A program made the translations under genes and the position numbers. From the NCBI RefSeq assembly GCF_037042905.1, contig NC_087245.1:14820001-14884000 (forward strand): a DNA stretch of 64,000 nucleotides, in the 5' to 3' direction. A model generated the notes under the pieces. That model was given only the letters and a program-made list of their open reading frames with translations, was not told the DNA's origin and searched no databases. This DNA comes from Lytechinus pictus. Its lineage: Eukaryota. Of this stretch, positions 1-53,793 are shown piece after piece. Position 1 is the first letter of the stretch; the number at the start of each line of letters is the position of its first letter.

Positions 1-114
1 AATGCTCATAACTTTCTTATTATTCATTCAATCTTCCTCAAACTTTCAACAATATGTTTCTTTGATTTTTCTCTTTGATGTGGATTCAGCTGGTTTCAAG
101 GGTTTCATTCTCCT
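1..114. mobile_element. Right end of a TTAA-flanked palindromic MITE, truncated by the window edge
   Basis: 1-114 resembles 588-701, the right arm of the adjacent MITE. It ends ...TTCATTCTCCT followed by TTAA (115-118). Confidence 0.75.
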
Positions 115-117
115 TTA

Positions 118-701
118 AGGAGAATGAAACCTTTGGAACAAGATAGCTTGTGTGAAAATACAAAAATCAAAGAAACAGATCAACGAAAGTTTGAGAAAAA
201 TCGGACAAATAATGAGAAAGTTATGAGCATTTGAATATTGCGATTACTAATGCTATGGAGATCCTCAAATTGGCAATGCGACAAAGATGTGTGATGTCAC
301 TTGTGAACAACTCTCCCATTACTTTAGTATATATTTCACTTAAATTGCCTCTTTTATCACTTCTATCAGTAGATCATGTGTTCTTTCTATGGGAGGGCAT
401 GTAATACAGTATTTTAAAGAATACATCATGGATAAAGAGTTTGTATCCCCACAAGAAAAAGCAGAAAGAGACATTTTGAGGGTATTTCATAGTCCATCAA
501 AGGGAAAGTTGTTCACATGTGACATCACACATCCTTGTCGCATTGCCAATGGGAGGATCTCCATAGCATTAGTGATTGCAATATTCAAATGCTCATAACT
601 TTCTCATTATTTGTCCAATTTTTCTCAAACTTTCTTTGTTCTCATTCTTTGATTTTTCTGTTCCGACACAAGCCTACTTATTCCAAATGTTTCATTTTCC
701 T
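118..701. mobile_element. Long-TIR palindromic MITE with TTAA flanks (Kolobok/piggyBac-type target site)
   Basis: Arms of about 190 bp are imperfect reverse complements (GGAGAATGAAAC...GATGTGTGATGTCAC vs GTGACATCACACATC...GTTTCATTTTCCT). TTAA at 115-118 and 702-705. Confidence 0.8.
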
Positions 702-2347
702 TTAACTCAAATCACACAACACAAAGTGGGGCTGGTAAGCAAGAATTTGGAATGCTTCCAGACATGTTAGATACCCTCTACATATGACTCCATTATTGTT
801 GTGTTTTCACTACTTTCATTACACAGAAATAAATACAATGCTTTAGATAATGTCAAGGACAGTGCATACATCTTATACTGTAAAGATAATGGAATGTTCC
901 CATTACCTGCACAGTTTGCTGCAGTACCGAACCATTGTGCACAACCAAGCTAAACATCTCCCATAATGTACTATAGCTGTCAAAATGCTTGTTTTGTGTA
1001 AAGGCTGATTGCATGTTTGGTATAAACACATCTTGAGTAGCACAACATAATTTGTCATGCTGCATTGCAATGAAATGTTTTGCTCTACTCTTTTATAACG
1101 TTTTCCTGATAAGAGGCCCATTAGCTTGCACAAAACATCGCAAGGACCTCCCAATGGAACTAAAATCTGATCAAGGCATCCATTCATTTCCTCCAAACCG
1201 TGTAATTTGTGCTTTATGTTGACTATTTGCTGCAGCTTTACAGAACATCAAACAAGACACTAAGGTGCAGTTGGGCATGTGGAAAACAACATCACATGGA
1301 CATGGATAGAATGTTCTAGACACAACTCTTTTGTGTTCACTGGACAGGAACTCCTGTTCATGTTTTATTCCATGTTTACCAAGCGGTCCCCCATCGTGAG
1401 CTGTACACATTCAATCATGTTGAAGAAGTAGTTTATGAAAATTCTGACCACTTCAGAGGCCAAGACTGTTTCATAAAGCTCTTGGTACGTCATCTACAAG
1501 AGATCTTCCGAATGATTGGAATTATCAAGTGCCACAATATAAGCTCAATATTTGTAAGACCATTTTTCTACGGATGTGGATGATTTAACTAAGTGTGATA
1601 TATTTGAATGTTAGCCGTCTACATACTCTACAATGAAAAATTTAAATGTTAATCAATATATGTATATTTCAACTTTAGGTGAATACATGTAGGTTTTAAC
1701 TTGTTTGGCTTATTCTACACCATTCATTCGTTAAGTCAAACTTCACGAACAACTCGTCATAAATCCCCTGGATCGTGTGAACGGACCAGTTACAATGCAG
1801 CCCCATGGAGAATGCAATTTCCTCTCTCCATTCTACAAACCAGTTGAAAGGAGGGTTGGCGGTATCTTCAATTGGGGAAGGCATATGCTTTCTTTGTTCC
1901 TACATACTACATAATTCAATTCTACCTTTTCACTGCATAGGGGAGAGCCTAAATAAAAGATGTCTTATTATCAGGGCGGGAATATGACAACAATAGAAGC
2001 CACTCTCTTGAAAATTGTCATCATTTGATTGAAGATAGTGATGTGTGCTGTGATTCAAGTGCCTATGGATGTCTGATTGAATAGGACTGAATTATTCACA
2101 ACATAACCACTACACTGGGGAATTTTATTTTGGGAAATAATGAGCAGTTCTTTGCATCCTAAACAATCTGAGATAATTTTTTTTGTCAATATTTTGAAGA
2201 GAATATATGAGAGAGAAAAAAACAATGACAAACTGGTAGTAGTGCATTGAATGGTTTGTTCATTATAAGAATTAAAAAAAAACTTTGTCAGTCTAATGAT
2301 ACTTTGTTAGCTCTCATCAGAATATCATATGAAATATGAGCACTTAC

Positions 2348-2389: not shown

Positions 2390-2584
2390 CTGTGTGAATA
2401 GACAAAAAAAGGGGGGTGAAAAAAAGATAAGGATTAAAAATGAAATAGAGAAGGAAATGAGGAAGAGGAGTAGGGGTAGGAGGGGGAGGAGGTAGTAAAA
2501 GTAGATATATTCCTCTCCATGAAACCAGATACATTCTGAAAATGTTCAACGTCATTTATAAAACATTTAAGAATTGTATTCTAT

Positions 2585-2818
2585 AAAAGGTAATGATCAT
2601 TTTCAGTGATCAGTAAATTTTTGAGAGAAACAAGTGTTAGGTTCATAGAGGAATATAATGTGTAAAACTCCAAATCGATACAGATTGTGCATGTGATCAC
2701 TAACCGGATAACATGTGATCTAATCACAGCGGGAAACATGTGCGTTGTGGAATATACTAGTAACGTGTGCACGTAATAAAGCCATTGCAGTCTGAAATTC
2801 CTTCGAGGCAACAAATTT
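2585..2818 (+). repeat. Split direct repeat A1 (234 bp)
   Basis: Identical by eye to 7190-7423 (AAAAGGTAATGATC...GGCAACAAATTT). The ORF track gives the same minus-strand translation for both copies. Confidence 0.95.
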
Positions 2819-2915
2819 ATTAGGAGGTCGCAACGTTTTTGTTTTCCCCAATGACGGAATAGCGATATTTGTCTTCTATTTTAGTCATTCCATAATCGAA
2901 CAGAATCGGAAAACA

Positions 2916-4130
2916 ATGGGGAAGAGGAGAAAGGCCACCACTGAACCGGCTCAGACGCGTTCTCGGGCAAAACGAGGTAGAAGTCGAGGCACCCGCCAGA
3001 CAAAAACGACAGCTGCCTCACACGCAACTCGGACGGTAGCTCCACCGGGAAGCGGTAGGCCTACGAGTACGACGGGAAATGAGCCCGGACAAGCCCCCGC
3101 AGCCACTGCAGTAGGAGCAGCGCCAGAACCCATTGACGTTGAGCAGGGTCGTTCATCCGGCCGTTCACCCAGCCGTCCAGCTAATAAGAGGCCAGCAGCT
3201 TCACAAGGGCCTGTGCTGCAATTACCATCCACTCAGGGTCAGACTCAGAGTTGTCCCAGGCCCAGCACTAGTAATAATACCGCAGGTGAGCCTTCTCGAC
3301 CTGAATACATGTCAGTACAAATACAAGATCATACAGATTCGTTCTACGTACCTGGCCATACTAATAATAACATTACAGGTCACGAATCGCACAATATTAG
3401 AGAACGAAGTCAGTCTGGGATGGTACGAGAGACCCCATTCACATCATCCTTCCCCGCAATTGTACCTCCTAGTGTTCAGATAAGAACTGACCTAACTCAA
3501 AATTCACACTGTGTCCATGATAATGAGGCCACAGGGCCAAATAACCAAACCATAATCAATACAGAACGTAGACCTAACACAGAGAACATGAATAGAGGCT
3601 ATCACCACCCTCACCATTCCCCGTTAAACCCTGTAGGTGACACACTGGGTGTATCTATTCCCCAAAGCATAAAAGAAAAGATTTGGAAGGGGGAGTATGT
3701 GAATCTAAATCTGTTAGTTAACGCCCAAGATGTAGCCTCCCACACACTGCGCGAAGCAGCAGAACAGAGAACTAATCTGGCAATAGCCGAGGAGGAAGGA
3801 AAATGGGTGTTAAAGCCCTACAATGCCCCCTCCAAAAACAAAATCATGTCCATTGAAATTTGGACAAATGCCTTCCTAATATACATGAGCGTCTATCTGG
3901 CAGCAAATCCACGACACACTCATGAAATTCTGAAGTACTGTCACCTCATTCGTTCTGCTGCTTCACGCTACTACGGATATGGTTGGAGGGACTACGATAT
4001 AGAATTTCGGCACCGATTTCATGCCACAGGGGGTTCCTGGGCGGAGATAAACGGGGAGTTGTGGCTCCTCCACGTAGTAGGGGGTGGTGTTCGGCAAGGG
4101 GCCCTGCCCCCATTCATCAACAGTGGGTAA
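2916..4130 (+). CDS. Gag-like ORF1 of the YR retrotransposon (404 aa)
   Basis: Basic, low-complexity N-terminus (MGKRRK...RSRAKRGRSR). The C-terminal block IKEKIWKGEYVNL...IEIWTNAFLIY...YGWRDYDIEFR...W...ELW resembles DIRS/Ngaro ORF1. Lies directly after A1. Confidence 0.8.
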   Translation: MGKRRKATTEPAQTRSRAKRGRSRGTRQTKTTAASHATRTVAPPGSGRPTSTTGNEPGQAPAATAVGAAPEPIDVEQGRSSGRSPSRPANKRPAASQGPVLQLPSTQGQTQSCPRPSTSNNTAGEPSRPEYMSVQIQDHTDSFYVPGHTNNNITGHESHNIRERSQSGMVRETPFTSSFPAIVPPSVQIRTDLTQNSHCVHDNEATGPNNQTIINTERRPNTENMNRGYHHPHHSPLNPVGDTLGVSIPQSIKEKIWKGEYVNLNLLVNAQDVASHTLREAAEQRTNLAIAEEEGKWVLKPYNAPSKNKIMSIEIWTNAFLIYMSVYLAANPRHTHEILKYCHLIRSAASRYYGYGWRDYDIEFRHRFHATGGSWAEINGELWLLHVVGGGVRQGALPPFINSG

Positions 4131-4160
4131 ACAAAGAGGGCAAACGCCCAGGCGTGCCGG

Positions 4161-4687
4161 CTGCAAATCTCGAGGTATGAGTCAATGTTTCAAGCAGCAT
4201 TTTGTTGGCTTTCTTTGGCTTCTTGAGGGTTGGATAATTCACGGTTCAGAGTCAGAGTGATGATGGGAGGAAGATATTGGCTATAGATGATATCCAATGG
4301 GGTCAGGAAGAAAATTCACAATTCATGTTGGTACAGATTAGATTTTCAAAGACAGACCAATACGGGAGGGGTACCACGCTTAAAATCAAAGAAAATAAGA
4401 CAGAGGGCACATGCCCTGTCAAGGCTATGGAGACGTACTTACGGGTACGGCCTAAAGGGAGAGGGCCACTTTTCTGCTATATGAATGGCTCCCCCCTTTC
4501 CAGGTATCAGTTCAATGCAGTATTGAAGAAGGCACTGTTTGTGTCGGGGGTCGGGGGTAACCAATATGGAACACACTCCTTTCGCATTGGGGCAGCCACA
4601 ATGGCAGCCCTAAAGGGTATACCTCCCGAGCAAATTATGACCATGGGTAGATGGCGTAGTGATGCCTATCTACGTTACATAAGGTGA
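4161..4687 (+). pseudogene. Tyrosine recombinase C-terminal catalytic domain, N-terminally truncated, with a frameshift and a premature stop
   Basis: YESMFQAAF, then a 1-nt shift at the T-run 4200-4203, then LLAFFGFLRVG*FT (TAA at 4235-4237 where E is usual). Then SKTDQ, CPV, HSFRIGAAT and GRWRSDAYLRYIR, giving the R-K-HxxR-W-Y catalytic set. Confidence 0.9.
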
Positions 4688-5251
4688 CCTATTGCGACAT
4701 TGTACCACAGCTAACTATGTGGGAAGGTTATGTAAGCTATGGGCAAACAATTATGGATGGTTCCTGTGGTTACTACTCAGGAAGCATACTTATAATTCGC
4801 TATACTTGGTCGCAGTTTCATCCACGTATTATTACATTTATTCATAACTATACAATAATAATAAAGGTAGAATCCAGTTAGCCGAGTAGTGGGTTTCTAC
4901 ATGGGGAGCACATTTGTAATTTGTCTAAACATGTATGTAAGCAGAAGTAACACAATAATAATAAAGATATATCTAGCCGGCTAATAACAATGTAGACAAT
5001 TGGATACTGCATAGGGTGCATATTTGTAATTACCCTTTGCGTGTGAACGGATATCCAAGTTCATGATGACAATAATGAGTAATAATTCAATATTCATATA
5101 GTGCCTTTTAAACTTTCTCAAAGCTCTTTACATAATACATCCTAACCTACTTATCAACTTAACTACAATCAGTTGTCAAAGTACAATAACAGAGATAATA
5201 GCCAATCAGCTATAAATGTAATATGACAAGAAAGATGTCAGTGCACTGGGC

Positions 5252-5887
5252 ATGTGTACATGTGTAGAACATGTTACTTCCGGGAACTCTCATTTTTTTA
5301 TTGCAGAGGGGACTGGAAACTGGATCTGGATTGTAGGGGATAGCCTGGTCAGAAGAGCAAAAGAACGAGCTTCACAACGCAACTATCAGCAATTTGGAGA
5401 GCGAGGTATCGTGGTCCGCTGGCATGGGCAAGGCGGCACCACGCTCCAGGATCTCCCCAGGATGGTCTCTAACCGGCTGAGATGCGGCACTCCTCCTGCA
5501 TTAGCTATTGTCCACTTAGGATCAAATGACATCGGACAGTATGATGTCTGCCGGTGCAGGATGGCAATTGACACAGCCATCCAAGATCTACGCACGAGAA
5601 TGCCGCACACCCATATCACCTGGTCTGGTATTTTACCGCGGCTCTTCTACTATGGTCGCAAGCAAGGCTCTAATTCACAGGAGGCCTTGGATGGAGTTCG
5701 TAAGTCTCTTAACAAATACGCTAGGAGGAAACTAGCCAGGATGTCGGATACCACCATCATCAAACATGAATTTGACCCCACAATCCACAGCCTCTTCAAT
5801 AGAGATAGAGTGCACCTCTCTGATTCGGGTTCAGACATTCTCATTGACAGTTTCAGAACTGCAGCAAGGGAAGCAGGATTTGTTTAG
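5252..5887 (+). CDS. SGNH/GDSL hydrolase (esterase) of the retrotransposon; true start probably the splice acceptor at 5306/5307
   Basis: Block I IWIVGDSL, block II HGQGG, block III IVHLGSNDI, block V DRVH. The Ser/Asp/His triad is intact and there are no stops. Confidence 0.88.
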   Translation: MCTCVEHVTSGNSHFFIAEGTGNWIWIVGDSLVRRAKERASQRNYQQFGERGIVVRWHGQGGTTLQDLPRMVSNRLRCGTPPALAIVHLGSNDIGQYDVCRCRMAIDTAIQDLRTRMPHTHITWSGILPRLFYYGRKQGSNSQEALDGVRKSLNKYARRKLARMSDTTIIKHEFDPTIHSLFNRDRVHLSDSGSDILIDSFRTAAREAGFV

Positions 5888-6810
5888 ATATGGAGAGGAG
5901 AGGAGCTTGAGAAACATTTTGGGAACTCGAGGCTTCTGGCAAGGTTTTTTTTTTTTGTAATGTATCTTAGTGTTATTACGTTTATTGTTTCTAGTCGTTT
6001 ATGTACATACTTCATTTTACGGGCTTTGTGAAGGGCACCGTCGACAGTACTACCTTGCCATTATCAATAATGATATGCACGTGTCTGGATTGAGGATAAT
6101 AACACTTGGAAGTAAAAAGAAAGAAAGAACAACTGAATAGAATGAATAGATAGACGAACAATTCTTTTTTATTCTTCATATTTTAGGGGTGAGAAGCAGG
6201 GACTGCACGGGAGAGTGTATAGGTCAATTATGACAAACCAATTCTTTCGAATGAATCAGCTTGGTAAAGCTTATTAAGTTTATTGTAGTAGTACAATACA
6301 TTATTTACTCTTGGAATTGCTTAGTTGATCAGAAATCGCAAGACGGGGCTGTCCCTGTGGTGACGTGCATAAATTTGAGAACCGAAAACGAACTGGGAAA
6401 GAAAGGACGATAATTAAGACAGGAGAGCAAAATATACTGTTTTGTTTATACTCTTTGAAAGGATACTGATGGTCTTTGGAAGGTTTTGCTGTAAGGGCTA
6501 CATGATAATGTTTGTAAATGGTGTGTAATACTAATGCCTTATCCAGGCCATTGTGCTCAGTATCCTCCATCTTATATGCATTTAGTCCTGAGATGATTAT
6601 ATCAACTAGAAGTTGCTTTAGTTTACCCTAGAAAGAACGTCCTTTTATAGGCATTTTGCATCTATTCATGTGAGGTTAAGTGTTTAATGCAGCTCCATGC
6701 CAATATATTAGGTAGCTTTATTTGCAAGCATGACAAGTTCATGTATGCTCCAGAATCATGCGACTTATGACGGGGCAAAAAAAAAAAAAAAAAAAATTAT
6801 TAATTGGGTG

Positions 6811-7193
6811 GAAGGTTTTTGTTCAGAAACAATTTGTTTGAAACCTGACAGATCACCAATATTGATATCAAAGTATATGCTCCAAAGATGTTGTTTACCA
6901 AGATTTAGGGAAACACCCGTGGGAACTACTATCCTGCGGGTGGGTCACGTGATCAACAGTCCCAGGGAGGAGTTACTACCCTTCCTGGCGATCACGTGAC
7001 CATATCTTTCAGTAAGATTAATAGGATGCCACAGATGTAGTTTTTCGTTATGTCTTACGACATTGTTCAGACTGTTTTGAGGTTTATCACCTCTTATGTT
7101 ATTTAGGCATATTGCCTCTGTGTTTTGATGCCTCGTACGGAATTAAACGGCGAGCAATGGCATATCATTTGTCCACGTGTTTTCTTCTCAAAA
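6811..7193 (+). repeat. Split direct repeat B1 (383 bp)
   Basis: Identical by eye to 8309-8691 (GAAGGTTTTTGTTCAG...TTTCTTCTCAAAA). Confidence 0.95.
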
Positions 7194-7423
7194 GGTAATG
7201 ATCATTTTCAGTGATCAGTAAATTTTTGAGAGAAACAAGTGTTAGGTTCATAGAGGAATATAATGTGTAAAACTCCAAATCGATACAGATTGTGCATGTG
7301 ATCACTAACCGGATAACATGTGATCTAATCACAGCGGGAAACATGTGCGTTGTGGAATATACTAGTAACGTGTGCACGTAATAAAGCCATTGCAGTCTGA
7401 AATTCCTTCGAGGCAACAAATTT
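7190..7423 (+). repeat. Split direct repeat A2
   Basis: Copy of A1. Overlaps B1 by AAAA (7190-7193). Confidence 0.95.
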
Positions 7424-7680
7424 TTCCCCTCCACTCCCACCCAGGTACATTGGTAATATATTATCGGGATGGGAGGACCTGGCGTCAATACAGAATTTAG
7501 TCACGGGATCGTTAAGGAGGTTGCATATTTCTGAGGCAATGCAGTGTAGCGGTGACTTTAGCACATATGTTACCATACAAGCTGATATCTTAGTCCATGC
7601 GTAGAGCTGAATTACTGTTGAGAATTACCGTGTGTAGGACATTTTGTGTATCACGATTTATGATATTCTTATTAAACATC

Positions 7681-7935
7681 TCATGGTTGGGAGGTTGGGC
7701 AGAGTTACGACAGTAGATCAGCATGGTTGGTAGGTTGGAAAGACATGGATTTCTGCATTAAGGCTGGGAGGTTGGGCAGAATTTAGACAGTCAGTCATCA
7801 TGGTTGGGAGGTTGGGCAGAGTTACGACAGTAGATCAGCATGGTTGGTAGGTTGGAAAGACATTGATTTCTGCATTAAGGCTGGGAGGTTGGGCAGAATT
7901 TAGACAGTCATTCATCATGGTTGGGAGGTTGGGAG
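7681..7935 (+). repeat. G-rich tandem repeat, 117-bp period (three sub-units of about 39 bp), in the A2-B2 spacer
   Basis: TCATGGTTGGGAGGTTGGG starts at 7681, 7798 and 7915. Confidence 0.9.
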
Positions 7936-8308
7936 AGATATTGAATTATTTTATGATTTTATGTTTTAGATTAGGAACAAGGACATCTGGAGGTAACTTA
8001 TTGGCCTGCATAAGGTTGGAAGGTTGGGCAGGGCACTTACGAGTTTATCAAGAAGGCAGATATACAACATTGTTGAATAGATGGCCATAGGATAGAGGTA
8101 TACTTTTATATGTCATACATATTATATTCTCAGGTTTAAAGAAGTCCACTGTCCAGATAGTCATATTAAAGTGACTATGCCTACAATATGGCTGGGAGGT
8201 TGGGTAGGACTTAAGGACAGGCAGCATAGAGCATTATATGGCTAATTATGACTTTTATATGTAAATGGTAAGGAGGAGCATGTCATGATACATTGCTTTA
8301 GAAGTGTA

Positions 8309-8691
8309 GAAGGTTTTTGTTCAGAAACAATTTGTTTGAAACCTGACAGATCACCAATATTGATATCAAAGTATATGCTCCAAAGATGTTGTTTACCAAG
8401 ATTTAGGGAAACACCCGTGGGAACTACTATCCTGCGGGTGGGTCACGTGATCAACAGTCCCAGGGAGGAGTTACTACCCTTCCTGGCGATCACGTGACCA
8501 TATCTTTCAGTAAGATTAATAGGATGCCACAGATGTAGTTTTTCGTTATGTCTTACGACATTGTTCAGACTGTTTTGAGGTTTATCACCTCTTATGTTAT
8601 TTAGGCATATTGCCTCTGTGTTTTGATGCCTCGTACGGAATTAAACGGCGAGCAATGGCATATCATTTGTCCACGTGTTTTCTTCTCAAAA
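8309..8691 (+). repeat. Split direct repeat B2 (right terminus)
   Basis: Copy of B1. Followed by the unique flank TATGTTCAT. Confidence 0.95.
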
Positions 8692-52700: not shown

Positions 52701-53087
52701 GAGAAAGAGAGAATACTAACACTGATATGCCTTTAAATGCAACCAAATTGTAACTTGAGCTGAAAATACATGACAAATTATTTGAAATGAAGCAATAATG
52801 CAACATAATTTTTTTTTACTAAAATGGTATTCGAAGAGACAATCAGTGTTGGTGATTTTTTCAAATGATACTTCTCTGGGGTCTTGAGAAATGCAAATAG
52901 ATCAATTGTTATTAAATCAAATCAATTCATACTTGTTGATGCAAGAAGCAAACCATCGATCAATTTCAAATTTGCAATAAAATAGATGAATTTCAATTGA
53001 TGTAAGGACTTAAAATTGACTTGCAATCAATTGCAATTTTCTTGCAACACCCACAAGTTAACAATCATTGCATAATAACTATATTGA

Positions 53088-53793
53088 TTTAGACATCCAA
53101 AAGGAAAAAAAAAAGCTTCTGAAAGCCAACAGCAACTCTATTACACCAGTTATTATTGAAGGAGAGGCCCTACAAGAGGTAGAATCTTTCAGGTACCTTG
53201 AAAGCATTGCTGACAAACTGGGAGGGACAGATGAAGATGTAAGAACTAGAATCGGTAAAGCAAGGGCAGCATTCATACAACTCAAGAACATTTGGAGTTC
53301 CAAGGAGATCAGTAGAGCAACAGAACTGCGTCTATTCAACACAAATGCCAAGTCTGTATTGCTCTATGGCGCAGAAACTTGGAGGACCACCAAAACTATT
53401 CTGCACAAGATTCAGACATTTTTCAACACATGTCTGAGGAGAATTCTCGGGATTCATTGGCCAGAGACAATCTCCAACACAGATCTCTGGCAACAACAAA
53501 AATCAAAGACCAATGAAAGAGATCCTGAGAAGAAGATGGAGGTGGCTTGGCCACACACTGAGGAAATCAAACAACAACAAAACAAAGCAGGCCCTTACCT
53601 GGAATCCTCAGGGGAAGCAACATCGGTCGCGGCAGACCCAGGAATACCTGGAGAAGAGATCTTGATGCCAACATCAAAGAGCTTGGAATGGGGTGGCAAA
53701 CCGTGGTGAACGCAGCCCAGGACCGAAGACGCTGGCGTGCTGTCGTCAATGGCCTATGCTCCAGTTGGAGTGACGGGCCATAAGTTACGTACG
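53088..53793 (+). mobile_element. 5'-truncated RTE-clade LINE (decayed RT C-terminus)
   Basis: [43 protein letters not shown], then after frameshifts [34 protein letters not shown] and a stop at 53781. Short TAxG tail. TSD TAACTATATTGA (53076-53087) / TAAATATATTGA (53794-53805). Confidence 0.88.

Follow-up and report, generated by a model that had tools for sequence, protein, structure and literature searches.

How the downstream open reading frames (ORFs) of tyrosine recombinase (YR) retroelements are expressed is poorly understood, because these ORFs often overlap and lack start codons. The question is raised by one such element in the sea urchin Lytechinus pictus, found in a stretch of 64,000 nucleotides (hereafter the window; contig NC_087245.1 of RefSeq assembly GCF_037042905.1, positions 14,820,001 to 14,884,000 of the forward strand, numbered here from 1), in which an ORF for an SGNH/GDSL esterase lies downstream of a gag-like ORF1. 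The element, at 2585-8605 of the window, is an internally deleted, non-autonomous copy of a Ngaro-type tyrosine recombinase retrotransposon, 6,021 bp long. A reading of the sequence alone had proposed that its esterase is expressed as a spliced fusion to the basic N-terminus of ORF1, a proposal that now has strong comparative support and exactly matching RefSeq protein models, but not support at the RNA level. We consider it likely that a leader-esterase protein is made by splicing 3285^5307, and that full-length relatives of the element also make a leader-YR protein from the same donor; such a shared spliced leader would be a concrete answer to the question of how downstream ORFs are expressed.

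The two splice sites named by the sequence-only reading were confirmed at single-base precision. For the donor, CAG|GTGAGC, the cut falls at 3285/3286 (context ...ACCGCAG|GTGAGCC), 3285 being the first base of ORF1 codon 124 and the site being in phase 1. The acceptor TTTTTTTATTGCAG|AG at 5306/5307 (context ...CATTTTTTTATTGCAG|AGGGG) is also in phase 1, with 5307 as position 2 of codon 19 (5306-5308) of a 3' ORF of 211 aa that runs from ATG 5252 to the stop ending at 5887 and is open, stop to stop, from 5222. This acceptor stands eight codons ahead of the first strand of the SGNH domain. Joining the sites gives G + AG = GAG and an open 316-aa protein, as had been claimed. The accompanying claim that splicing would remove the gag core, pol and the YR is right for the gag core, but the window copy has no pol, and all that its predicted intron contains besides the gag core is a deletion joint and the last 120 aa of a YR.

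The predicted product is already present in the databases. XP_054771737.1 (P0038 in our searches, labelled Lytechinus pictus, 316 aa) is exactly the fusion encoded by the window, namely 123 aa from 2916-3284, the junction residue E, and 192 aa from 5309-5884, and a 313-aa protein of L. variegatus (P0036) is the same fusion. According to the mechanism that we propose, the primary transcript would carry one strong 5' splice site, 123 codons into ORF1, and splicing would remove the gag core and everything up to the esterase, leaving an mRNA whose first ATG would be that of gag and whose 316-aa product would consist of a disordered Lys/Arg-rich leader followed by the SGNH esterase. In full-length relatives, three proteins would then share one N-terminal leader: Gag, translated from unspliced RNA, and leader-YR and leader-esterase, translated from two subgenomic RNAs. 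We infer that the splice occurs in vivo in L. pictus.

The strength of the donor does not by itself single it out. On the sense strand of each of three elements it is the only site with at least 6 of 7 matches to MAG|GTRAGT, and dinucleotide shuffles led us to expect 1.9-2.9 such donors per element versus the one observed; one strong donor per element is not remarkable in itself. The two to three donors expected by chance count in favour of an artefactual explanation, in which the sites are inherited chance matches, the fusion proteins ab initio models spread by homology, and the 3' ORF an unexpressed relic in this genome. That artefactual explanation fits less well with the position of the donor, since a strong phase-1 donor fell within a leader-sized stretch in just 3.55% of 2000 shuffles, and a rough estimate that also requires a pyrimidine-rich YAG of matching phase, no more than ~60 nt from where the domain starts, comes to some 1e-3 to 1e-4.

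Support for the splice comes from comparison among diverged elements of the same genome. A search of the genome with the SGNH protein returned 35 matches, which include 11 copies of the window family (family 1, 92-100%) and eight copies of a second family (46-48% identity); DNA-level features were read in one copy of family 2 (L035) and, for a third family, in one copy for the donor (L036) and one for the acceptor (L038). In family 2, ORF1 begins MGKRKGARG... and carries the donor CAG|GTGAGG in phase 1 at codon 84, and the acceptor TTTCTTTGTCATGCAG|GA, also in phase 1, lies ahead of the SGNH domain with a TAA five codons upstream and no in-frame ATG preceding the catalytic GDS serine in L035. 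Each of the eight family-2 copies has an open frame of exactly 199 aa starting at the residue after the acceptor. In family 3, the donor is CCG|GTGAGT, in phase 1 at codon 83, and the acceptor ...CTCCATACAG|AT, in phase 1, precedes a degenerate SGNH copy; in a further family-3 SGNH copy (L037, on C3) the start of the domain is missing and no acceptor was found.

The gag core of ORF1 can be aligned between the window family and family 2, and the leaders, which run for 123, 83 and 82 codons up to the junction codon in the three families, defy alignment past their first five residues, MGK[RH][RK]. Around the donor, G|GTGAG alone is common to the three families, and its retention in flanks that have diverged past alignment is difficult to reconcile with inherited chance sites. 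The distance from acceptor to GDS varies by one to two codons among the families, and the phase across the joint is kept. The sequence-only reading had named conservation of donor, acceptor and phase among aligned family members as a check on the splice, and all three are indeed kept in three diverged families. Within family 1 all 16 locus records examined for the donor have it intact, corresponding to the 11 distinct copies and one relative of 82-89% identity, and the acceptor AG in 17 of 17, an intactness that weighs little because the copies are too alike.

Proteins of the same design were also observed in other animals. A search of 1.84 billion representative proteins gave 1005 matches at E values up to 0.001, and about 12 of the 27 matches with an N-terminal extension that were inspected carry a short Lys/Arg-rich head right before the SGNH domain (MGKHK.., MPKSTRS.., MPRGKPARKR.., MPKVKKG.., MSGRGKPAGRKRK..). 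Ten of these basic-head proteins were looked up; they are predicted proteins whose sources are sea urchins, a starfish and bivalves of six genera, several bearing the name 'isoform X2'. Entries from Dreissena (KAH...), which are not labelled as RefSeq XP records, are basic-leader-SGNH proteins too, which argues against the spread of fusion models by homology. All eight named members of the cluster from Strongylocentrotus purpuratus are 258 or 299 aa long, and the four whose sequence was read are fusions of a basic leader to SGNH; relatives from this species are otherwise modelled from an internal Met (173 aa).

Pairs of isoforms place the divergence of the products at the leader junction. The S. 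purpuratus isoforms X1 (427 aa) and X2 of LOC754287 are identical over 103 aa, after which X1 continues D-GAIPQTS..YR and X2 continues E-TTGDRIWIVGDS, and isoforms X1 (408 aa) and X2 of L. variegatus LOC121415177 are identical over 83 aa. To our knowledge, the NCBI pipeline issues extra isoforms solely with transcript support. In oysters, a gag ORF1 (P0361, 335 aa) has the same gag core motifs and Cys/His cluster, and its leader recurs both in a 269-aa protein that joins it to SGNH (P0153) and in a model that joins it to YR and SGNH (P0359). The complete 269-aa form is found on Logan contigs of 1,240 nt (P0224) and 1,308 nt (P0222), which are too short to contain the gag core, pol and YR, so that a contiguous oyster fusion exists, either as a spliced cDNA or as an intronless copy; this, too, counts against an artefact of gene prediction. 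Sea-urchin Logan/ENA members of the clusters were candidates for spliced transcripts, but those that were checked (P0021-P0027 by length; P0023, P0024, P0027, P0040, P0044, P0047, P0356 and P0357 by sequence) have no leader and begin within the domain or shortly ahead of it.

A second predicted acceptor, likewise in phase 1, is compatible with this donor; it would open the ATG-less YR ORF and is new here, having gone unseen in the sequence-only reading. The YR ORFs of the family-2 copy L035 and of L031, a full-length relative of the window copy on another contig, have no ATG near their start. Their candidate acceptors, CCCTCTCTCGCTTCCAG|AT (L031) and CTCTATCCCGGTTACAG|AT (L035), are pyrimidine-rich, in phase 1, and lie within the codons SR[F/L]Q|M at the end of RNase H. 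Joining the leader donor to this acceptor would give D at the junction, as in both sea-urchin X1 isoforms. Another strong acceptor inside the YR (L031 4820) is in the wrong phase, and in the window copy the YR acceptor falls in the stretch that has been deleted. Separately, some models (P0042, P0359, P0006) join the end of the YR (..RKMG|) or its N-terminal part straight to SGNH, a possible sign that the elements of S. purpuratus, oyster and starfish have a second donor close to the end of the YR, or else of model artefacts.

The predicted product has a clear two-part organization. Its leader contains 20 Lys or Arg residues in 123 aa, 12 of them within the first 35, and no helix is predicted in residues 1-128. 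In a structure model of P0038 based on an 18-sequence alignment, residues 1-125 have no secondary structure and a predicted local distance difference test (pLDDT) score below 50, and residues 129-312 adopt an SGNH alpha/beta fold with pLDDT mostly above 90; in this model the exon joint at residue 124 is the boundary of the fold. The top Foldseek matches are PAF acetylhydrolase Ib and GDSL esterases, with probability 1.00 and a template modelling (TM, target) score of ~0.65. By sequence, the better of two PDB matches to the window esterase is 4c1b_A (E 6.6e-4, query residues 6-181), with the GDS, GxND and DxxH blocks aligned, so that the window esterase appears closest to the esterase of the ORF1 protein (ORF1p) of the long interspersed nuclear element (LINE) L2. 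As 4C1B is not among the Foldseek matches listed, this link rests on sequence. Across 18 fusion proteins of echinoderms and bivalves, there is no variation at G134, S136, G167, G195, N197 and D290 and almost none at H193 and H293, and the esterase is predicted to be catalytically intact. The composition of the leader suggests a nuclear-targeting or RNA-binding arm.

The label 'env-like' that had been given to the spliced RNA is appropriate for its route of expression, but not for its product, a disordered Lys/Arg-rich N-terminus followed by a single SGNH domain of soluble type that ends at residue 316. No hydrophobic signal or membrane segment was seen on reading the fusion sequence, on which no signal-peptide or transmembrane predictor was run. 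Because the product has no marks of an envelope protein, 'env-like' describes the expression route alone.

Splicing could also be real and have as its main role to reduce the level of full-length genomic RNA or to tag the transcript, the fusion protein being a functionless by-product. In favour of such a role are the single strong donor on the sense strand, the lack of intronless retrocopies (none of 47 genomic matches to P0038 spans residue 124) and the esterase function being termed unproven in the part of PMC9210276 that we consulted. Against it, the catalytic residues (Ser, Gly, Asn, Asp and His) vary little or not at all across the 18 fusion proteins of echinoderms and bivalves, and the phase across the joint is kept in three families despite the variation of one to two codons between acceptor and GDS. 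Even in the deleted derivative, the 221-aa stop-to-stop frame of the esterase is free of stops in 7 of the 11 family-1 copies, two of the others having a TAG and two a frameshift. We regard the by-product explanation as very improbable.

The start codons immediately upstream of the acceptor offer a further alternative, in which translation of the esterase begins at an ATG of its own (5252 in the window copy, 5260 or 5271 in others), the RNA being unspliced or initiated internally and the splice sites unused or marginal. ATG 5252 opens the 211-aa ORF, and as there are ATGs in all three frames within 20 nt, variants of the T-run still have a start; whether by chance or as a back-up start, any length of the run leaves some ATG in frame with the esterase. 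Short gene models agree with such a start: the cluster has 11 members that are unnamed or carry the label L. pictus, ten of them 205-239 aa long and one the fusion, and four of these ten (P0002, P0032, P0033, P0037) begin at a local ATG, the other six being known by length. In addition, two copies, L005 and L006 (C17:238318-247340 and C17:4964520-4973046 of the L. pictus genome, G000), have a 7-nt deletion 5 nt past the acceptor that breaks the spliced frame and brings ATG 5260 into frame (model P0032). As an aside on these copies, L006 and a third one, L007 (C16:24933623-24942153), are interrupted at the same element position (~498-506), which suggests a shared nested insertion or a segmental duplication.

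What the upstream ATGs encode speaks differently. The pyrimidine tract differs in length between copies and species, shifting the upstream frame (in the 82-89% relative it is one base shorter), and database models from various copies and species begin MCTCVEH.., MGRTCYF.. or MLLPGTL.. before reaching a common ..FFIAEGTG. These peptides from ATG to acceptor are mutually unrelated and resemble a translated pyrimidine tract, in agreement with the earlier view that ATG 5252 merely reads through the tract. As judged from these sequences, the reading frame is kept downstream of the acceptor AG and not upstream of it. The conservation of ATG 5252 itself, also named as a check, gives a mixed picture: among the 11 distinct family-1 copies a 6-nt deletion removes it in one and a 1-nt deletion puts it out of frame in another, and family 2 has no ATG of its own, but it is in frame in 7 of the 11. 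Translation from a local ATG is also at odds with family 2, where the stop five codons before the acceptor leaves no in-frame ATG ahead of the catalytic serine, and with the S. purpuratus relatives, which are modelled from an internal Met or as fusions; it leaves the conserved phase-1 donor and the leader-sharing isoforms unexplained. We consider this alternative unlikely, though less so than the other two rivals.

Besides the in-frame ATG of 7 of the 11 copies and the short models just described, several points weigh against a spliced leader-esterase. The three families share ancestry, so their agreement does not amount to three independent events, and the phase of the donor is partly held by the gag reading frame itself. 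No intronless genomic copy was found among the 47 matches to P0038, and none of 110 genomic DNA matches of the element breaks at the donor or the acceptor. The candidate YR acceptor sits in conserved coding sequence at the end of RNase H, which itself favours pyrimidine-rich codons and CAG. Gene models can be produced ab initio or copied across species by protein similarity, and annotation of these loci is inconsistent, some models fusing a YR fragment to SGNH (P0001, P0006).

Reads spanning the junction had been proposed as a check, and the RNA reads available have no power either way. From two raw RNA runs (X19, X20; ~6% of each sampled), reads were placed on window:2400-7150; the 6 + 2 reads obtained all fall in 2559-3194 and none over 3195-7150, so that neither splice site was reached. 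In all eight, the first mate maps to the minus strand. Two runs of contigs, X1 and X15, whose type is not recorded, cover the element evenly and unspliced, their only joints reflecting the element's own B1-A2 repeat order (contigs of both link 7150 to the A repeat via 39 letters, which is that order) and one 79-nt skip in B1. Eight reads that bring no RNA evidence, and gene models that contradict one another, are compatible with the artefactual explanation introduced above; set against the phase and conservation of the donor, the Dreissena entries and the oyster contigs, we give it very little credence. Splicing of the leader to the esterase remains the reading that we prefer.

The features of the element are collected in Table 1. 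Its repeats follow the order A1...B1-A2-B2 of Ngaro, and the full-length relative L031 is laid out alike.

Table 1. Features of the Ngaro-type element copy, in window coordinates.
Feature	Position	Strand	Description
Split direct repeat A1, 5' element end	2585..2818	+	234 nt, 100% identity to 7190-7423
ORF1, gag-like, 404 aa, cut short in the window copy	2916..4130	+	from the ORF list
Predicted leader exon, coding part: ORF1 ATG, 123 codons, first base of codon 124	2916..3285	+	Lys/Arg-rich
Predicted 5' splice donor CAG|GTGAGC, cut 3285|3286	3283..3291	+	phase 1
Predicted intron, 2,021 nt	3286..5306	+	~4.25 kb in L031 (donor 1338|1339, acceptor 5588|5589)
Deletion joint	4168..4172	+	5-nt microhomology TCTCG
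Tyrosine recombinase C-terminal remnant, 120 aa	4325..4687	+	Pfam Phage_integrase 5.1e-07, profile positions 75-160 of 172
Three ATGs (5252, 5260, 5271), one per frame, within 20 nt of one another and just upstream of the pyrimidine tract	5252..5273	+	rival starts
Pyrimidine tract and predicted 3' acceptor TCATTTTTTTATTGCAG|, cut 5306|5307	5290..5306	+	phase 1
Predicted SGNH/GDSL esterase exon, to stop	5307..5887	+	Pfam Lipase_GDSL_2 3.9e-10 (3' ORF), above the Pfam cut-off
Split direct repeat B1	6808..7107	+	300 nt, 100% identity to 8306-8605
Split direct repeat A2	7190..7423	+	copy of A1, 100%
Split direct repeat B2, 3' element end	8306..8605	+	genome-wide matches of the 6,021-bp unit stop here

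L031 carries the full set of genes: a gag-like ORF1 that continues into a CCHC-like Cys/His cluster, a 637-aa ORF for reverse transcriptase (RT) and RNase H, a 335-aa YR ORF and the SGNH ORF, together with the split repeats. Pfam searches identified RVT_1 (5.1e-13), RVT_thumb and a weak RT_RNaseH match in its pol, and Phage_integrase (9.6e-07) in its YR ORF, where a SAM-like N domain (4e-04) fell just under the Pfam cut-off (21.0 vs 22.3 bits); ORF1 of the window matched no Pfam family in the same kind of profile search. No methyltransferase domain is among the Pfam matches of the 637-aa ORF, from which a diverged domain could escape. The absence of this domain sets Ngaro apart from DIRS1 and PAT. 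Judged by these matches, the family has the RT and RNase H of a Ngaro element and the window copy does not, and a YR stands in place of a DDE integrase. In L031 the end of ORF1 and the RT/RNase H ORF share 274 nt, read in different frames (2191-2465; also 3996-4104), and where the RT/RNase H ORF begins no strong acceptor was seen.

Relative to L031, 2,247 bp (L031 2233-4479) are missing from the window copy, namely the end of gag, RT and RNase H, the YR acceptor and the N-terminal part of the YR. No RT ORF is found in the copy, and the whole 64-kb window has only three stop-to-stop frames of at least 150 aa, the third of which lies at 53062-53709 on the + strand (215 aa). Splicing was rejected as the origin of the 2,247-bp deletion, as its flanks are not GT..AG and share the microhomology TCTCG. 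The 6-kb form arose through deletion between two TCTCG pentamers and then multiplied: counting that of the window, the 812-Mb genome contains at least five end-to-end copies of the unit, with 98-100% identity, alongside interrupted and partial ones. In this pol-less derivative leader, donor, acceptor and esterase are all kept, and with them the capacity to encode the fusion of leader and esterase.

A second independent deletion derivative that retains the leader and donor is the 82-89% relative of family 1 (L034, G000 C18:25674000-25683900), in which another internal deletion joins the N-terminal part of ORF1 directly to that of the YR, and whose SGNH ORF contains a stop. Between A2 and B2 of the window copy (7681-7914, and 7676-8213) lie two 117-nt tandem units, 98% alike, and six copies of a 33-nt motif of the GGCTGGGAGGTTGGGCAGA type; judged from the spacing of the B repeats (1380 vs 1498), L031 has one 117-nt unit fewer. 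About 530 bp of the 3' untranslated part (window 6097-6631) are unmatched in the full-length relative on C17 (element positions 3513-4047), reflecting either an insertion in the window copy or a deletion in that relative. Upstream of the element, window 1-705 contains an inverted repeat whose 241-nt arms (114-354 and 465-705) are 84% complementary, another repeat of 1-76 with 156-231, and direct copies at 1-75 and 588-662, and looks like a small foldback element or one resembling a miniature inverted-repeat transposable element (MITE).

The fusion protein itself is not new, its 316-aa sequence being already public as an unnamed prediction; its reading as an expression strategy was not found in print. 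Ngaro elements of the DIRS order with a 3' SGNH-hydrolase ORF are known (PMC9210276 and PMC7192593, citing Goodwin & Poulter 2004), and in the portions of these two papers available to us the ORF is said to have 'no proven function' and its mode of expression is unmentioned. The text seen of PMC9210276 contains no word beginning with 'splic', 'intron' or 'subgenomic', and natural splicing of Ngaro or DIRS elements is likewise unmentioned in the accessible parts of PMC9210276, PMC7192593, PMC13465315, PMC4157794 and PMC2632668. Our literature search, whose coverage did not extend to the founding Ngaro papers (Goodwin & Poulter 2004; Poulter & Goodwin 2005; Poulter & Butler 2015), found the fusions nowhere read as an expression programme of YR retroelements.

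There is, in our judgement, about an even chance that the SGNH-bearing Ngaro-like elements of echinoderms and bivalves evolved a retrovirus-like splicing programme within the DIRS order, in which a single phase-1 donor serves two acceptors and a shared nuclear-localisation or RNA-binding arm brings Gag, YR and a lipid-binding esterase to the ribonucleoprotein of the element. If so, the expression of downstream ORFs that overlap and have no ATG would be explained, and the design of CR1/L2 ORF1p, a basic arm plus an esterase, would have been reached a second time, via splicing. The splicing model would also explain the inconsistent 'uncharacterized protein' annotation of these loci, and the link between the Ngaro esterase and a LINE ORF1p esterase with measured lipid binding points to a testable function.

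The element resembles described Ngaro elements in the order of its family's ORFs (gag-like ORF1, RT/RNase H, YR, SGNH), in its split repeats A1...B1-A2-B2 and in its sea-urchin host, and differs from them in the proposed leader exon shared by two alternative acceptors and, for the window copy, in having no pol. Splicing is also used by plant Ty1/Copia elements (PMC5580714) and by cauliflower mosaic virus (PMC4498817), where, as far as the consulted parts of these sources go, it similarly sets the ratio and identity of proteins made from a compact polycistronic RNA; these belong to other orders, and no coding leader fused in frame to two enzymes is apparent in what was seen of them. The esterase of ZfL2-1 ORF1p from zebrafish L2 (PDB 4C1B) is hydrolytically active and binds negatively charged phospholipids, and in ORF1 proteins of the CR1 clade an esterase follows an arginine-rich motif that has been linked to RNA binding (both from the sections of PMC3905857 that were available).

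Like these CR1/L2 proteins, the predicted fusion is encoded by a retroelement and combines a homologous esterase (4c1b_A) with a basic stretch upstream of it. Unlike L2 ORF1p, which is the continuous ORF1 of a non-LTR (long terminal repeat) element and has a coiled coil, it would arise by splicing, in a YR element whose 3' ORF supplies the esterase, and its leader has no predicted helix. Spliced subgenomic RNAs are textbook knowledge for retroviruses, and the env message of avian leukosis virus uses the gag ATG and the first gag codons. The arrangement proposed here is like that of retroviral and errantiviral env mRNAs in having a donor near or in the 5' part of gag, an acceptor before the 3' ORF and a borrowed gag initiation codon, with unspliced RNA left for gag and pol. 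It is unlike them in that the product is no envelope protein, that the borrowed stretch, at 83-123 aa, is a long one with the appearance of a functional module, and that a second predicted acceptor would serve the recombinase, all of this in a non-LTR-bearing YR element.

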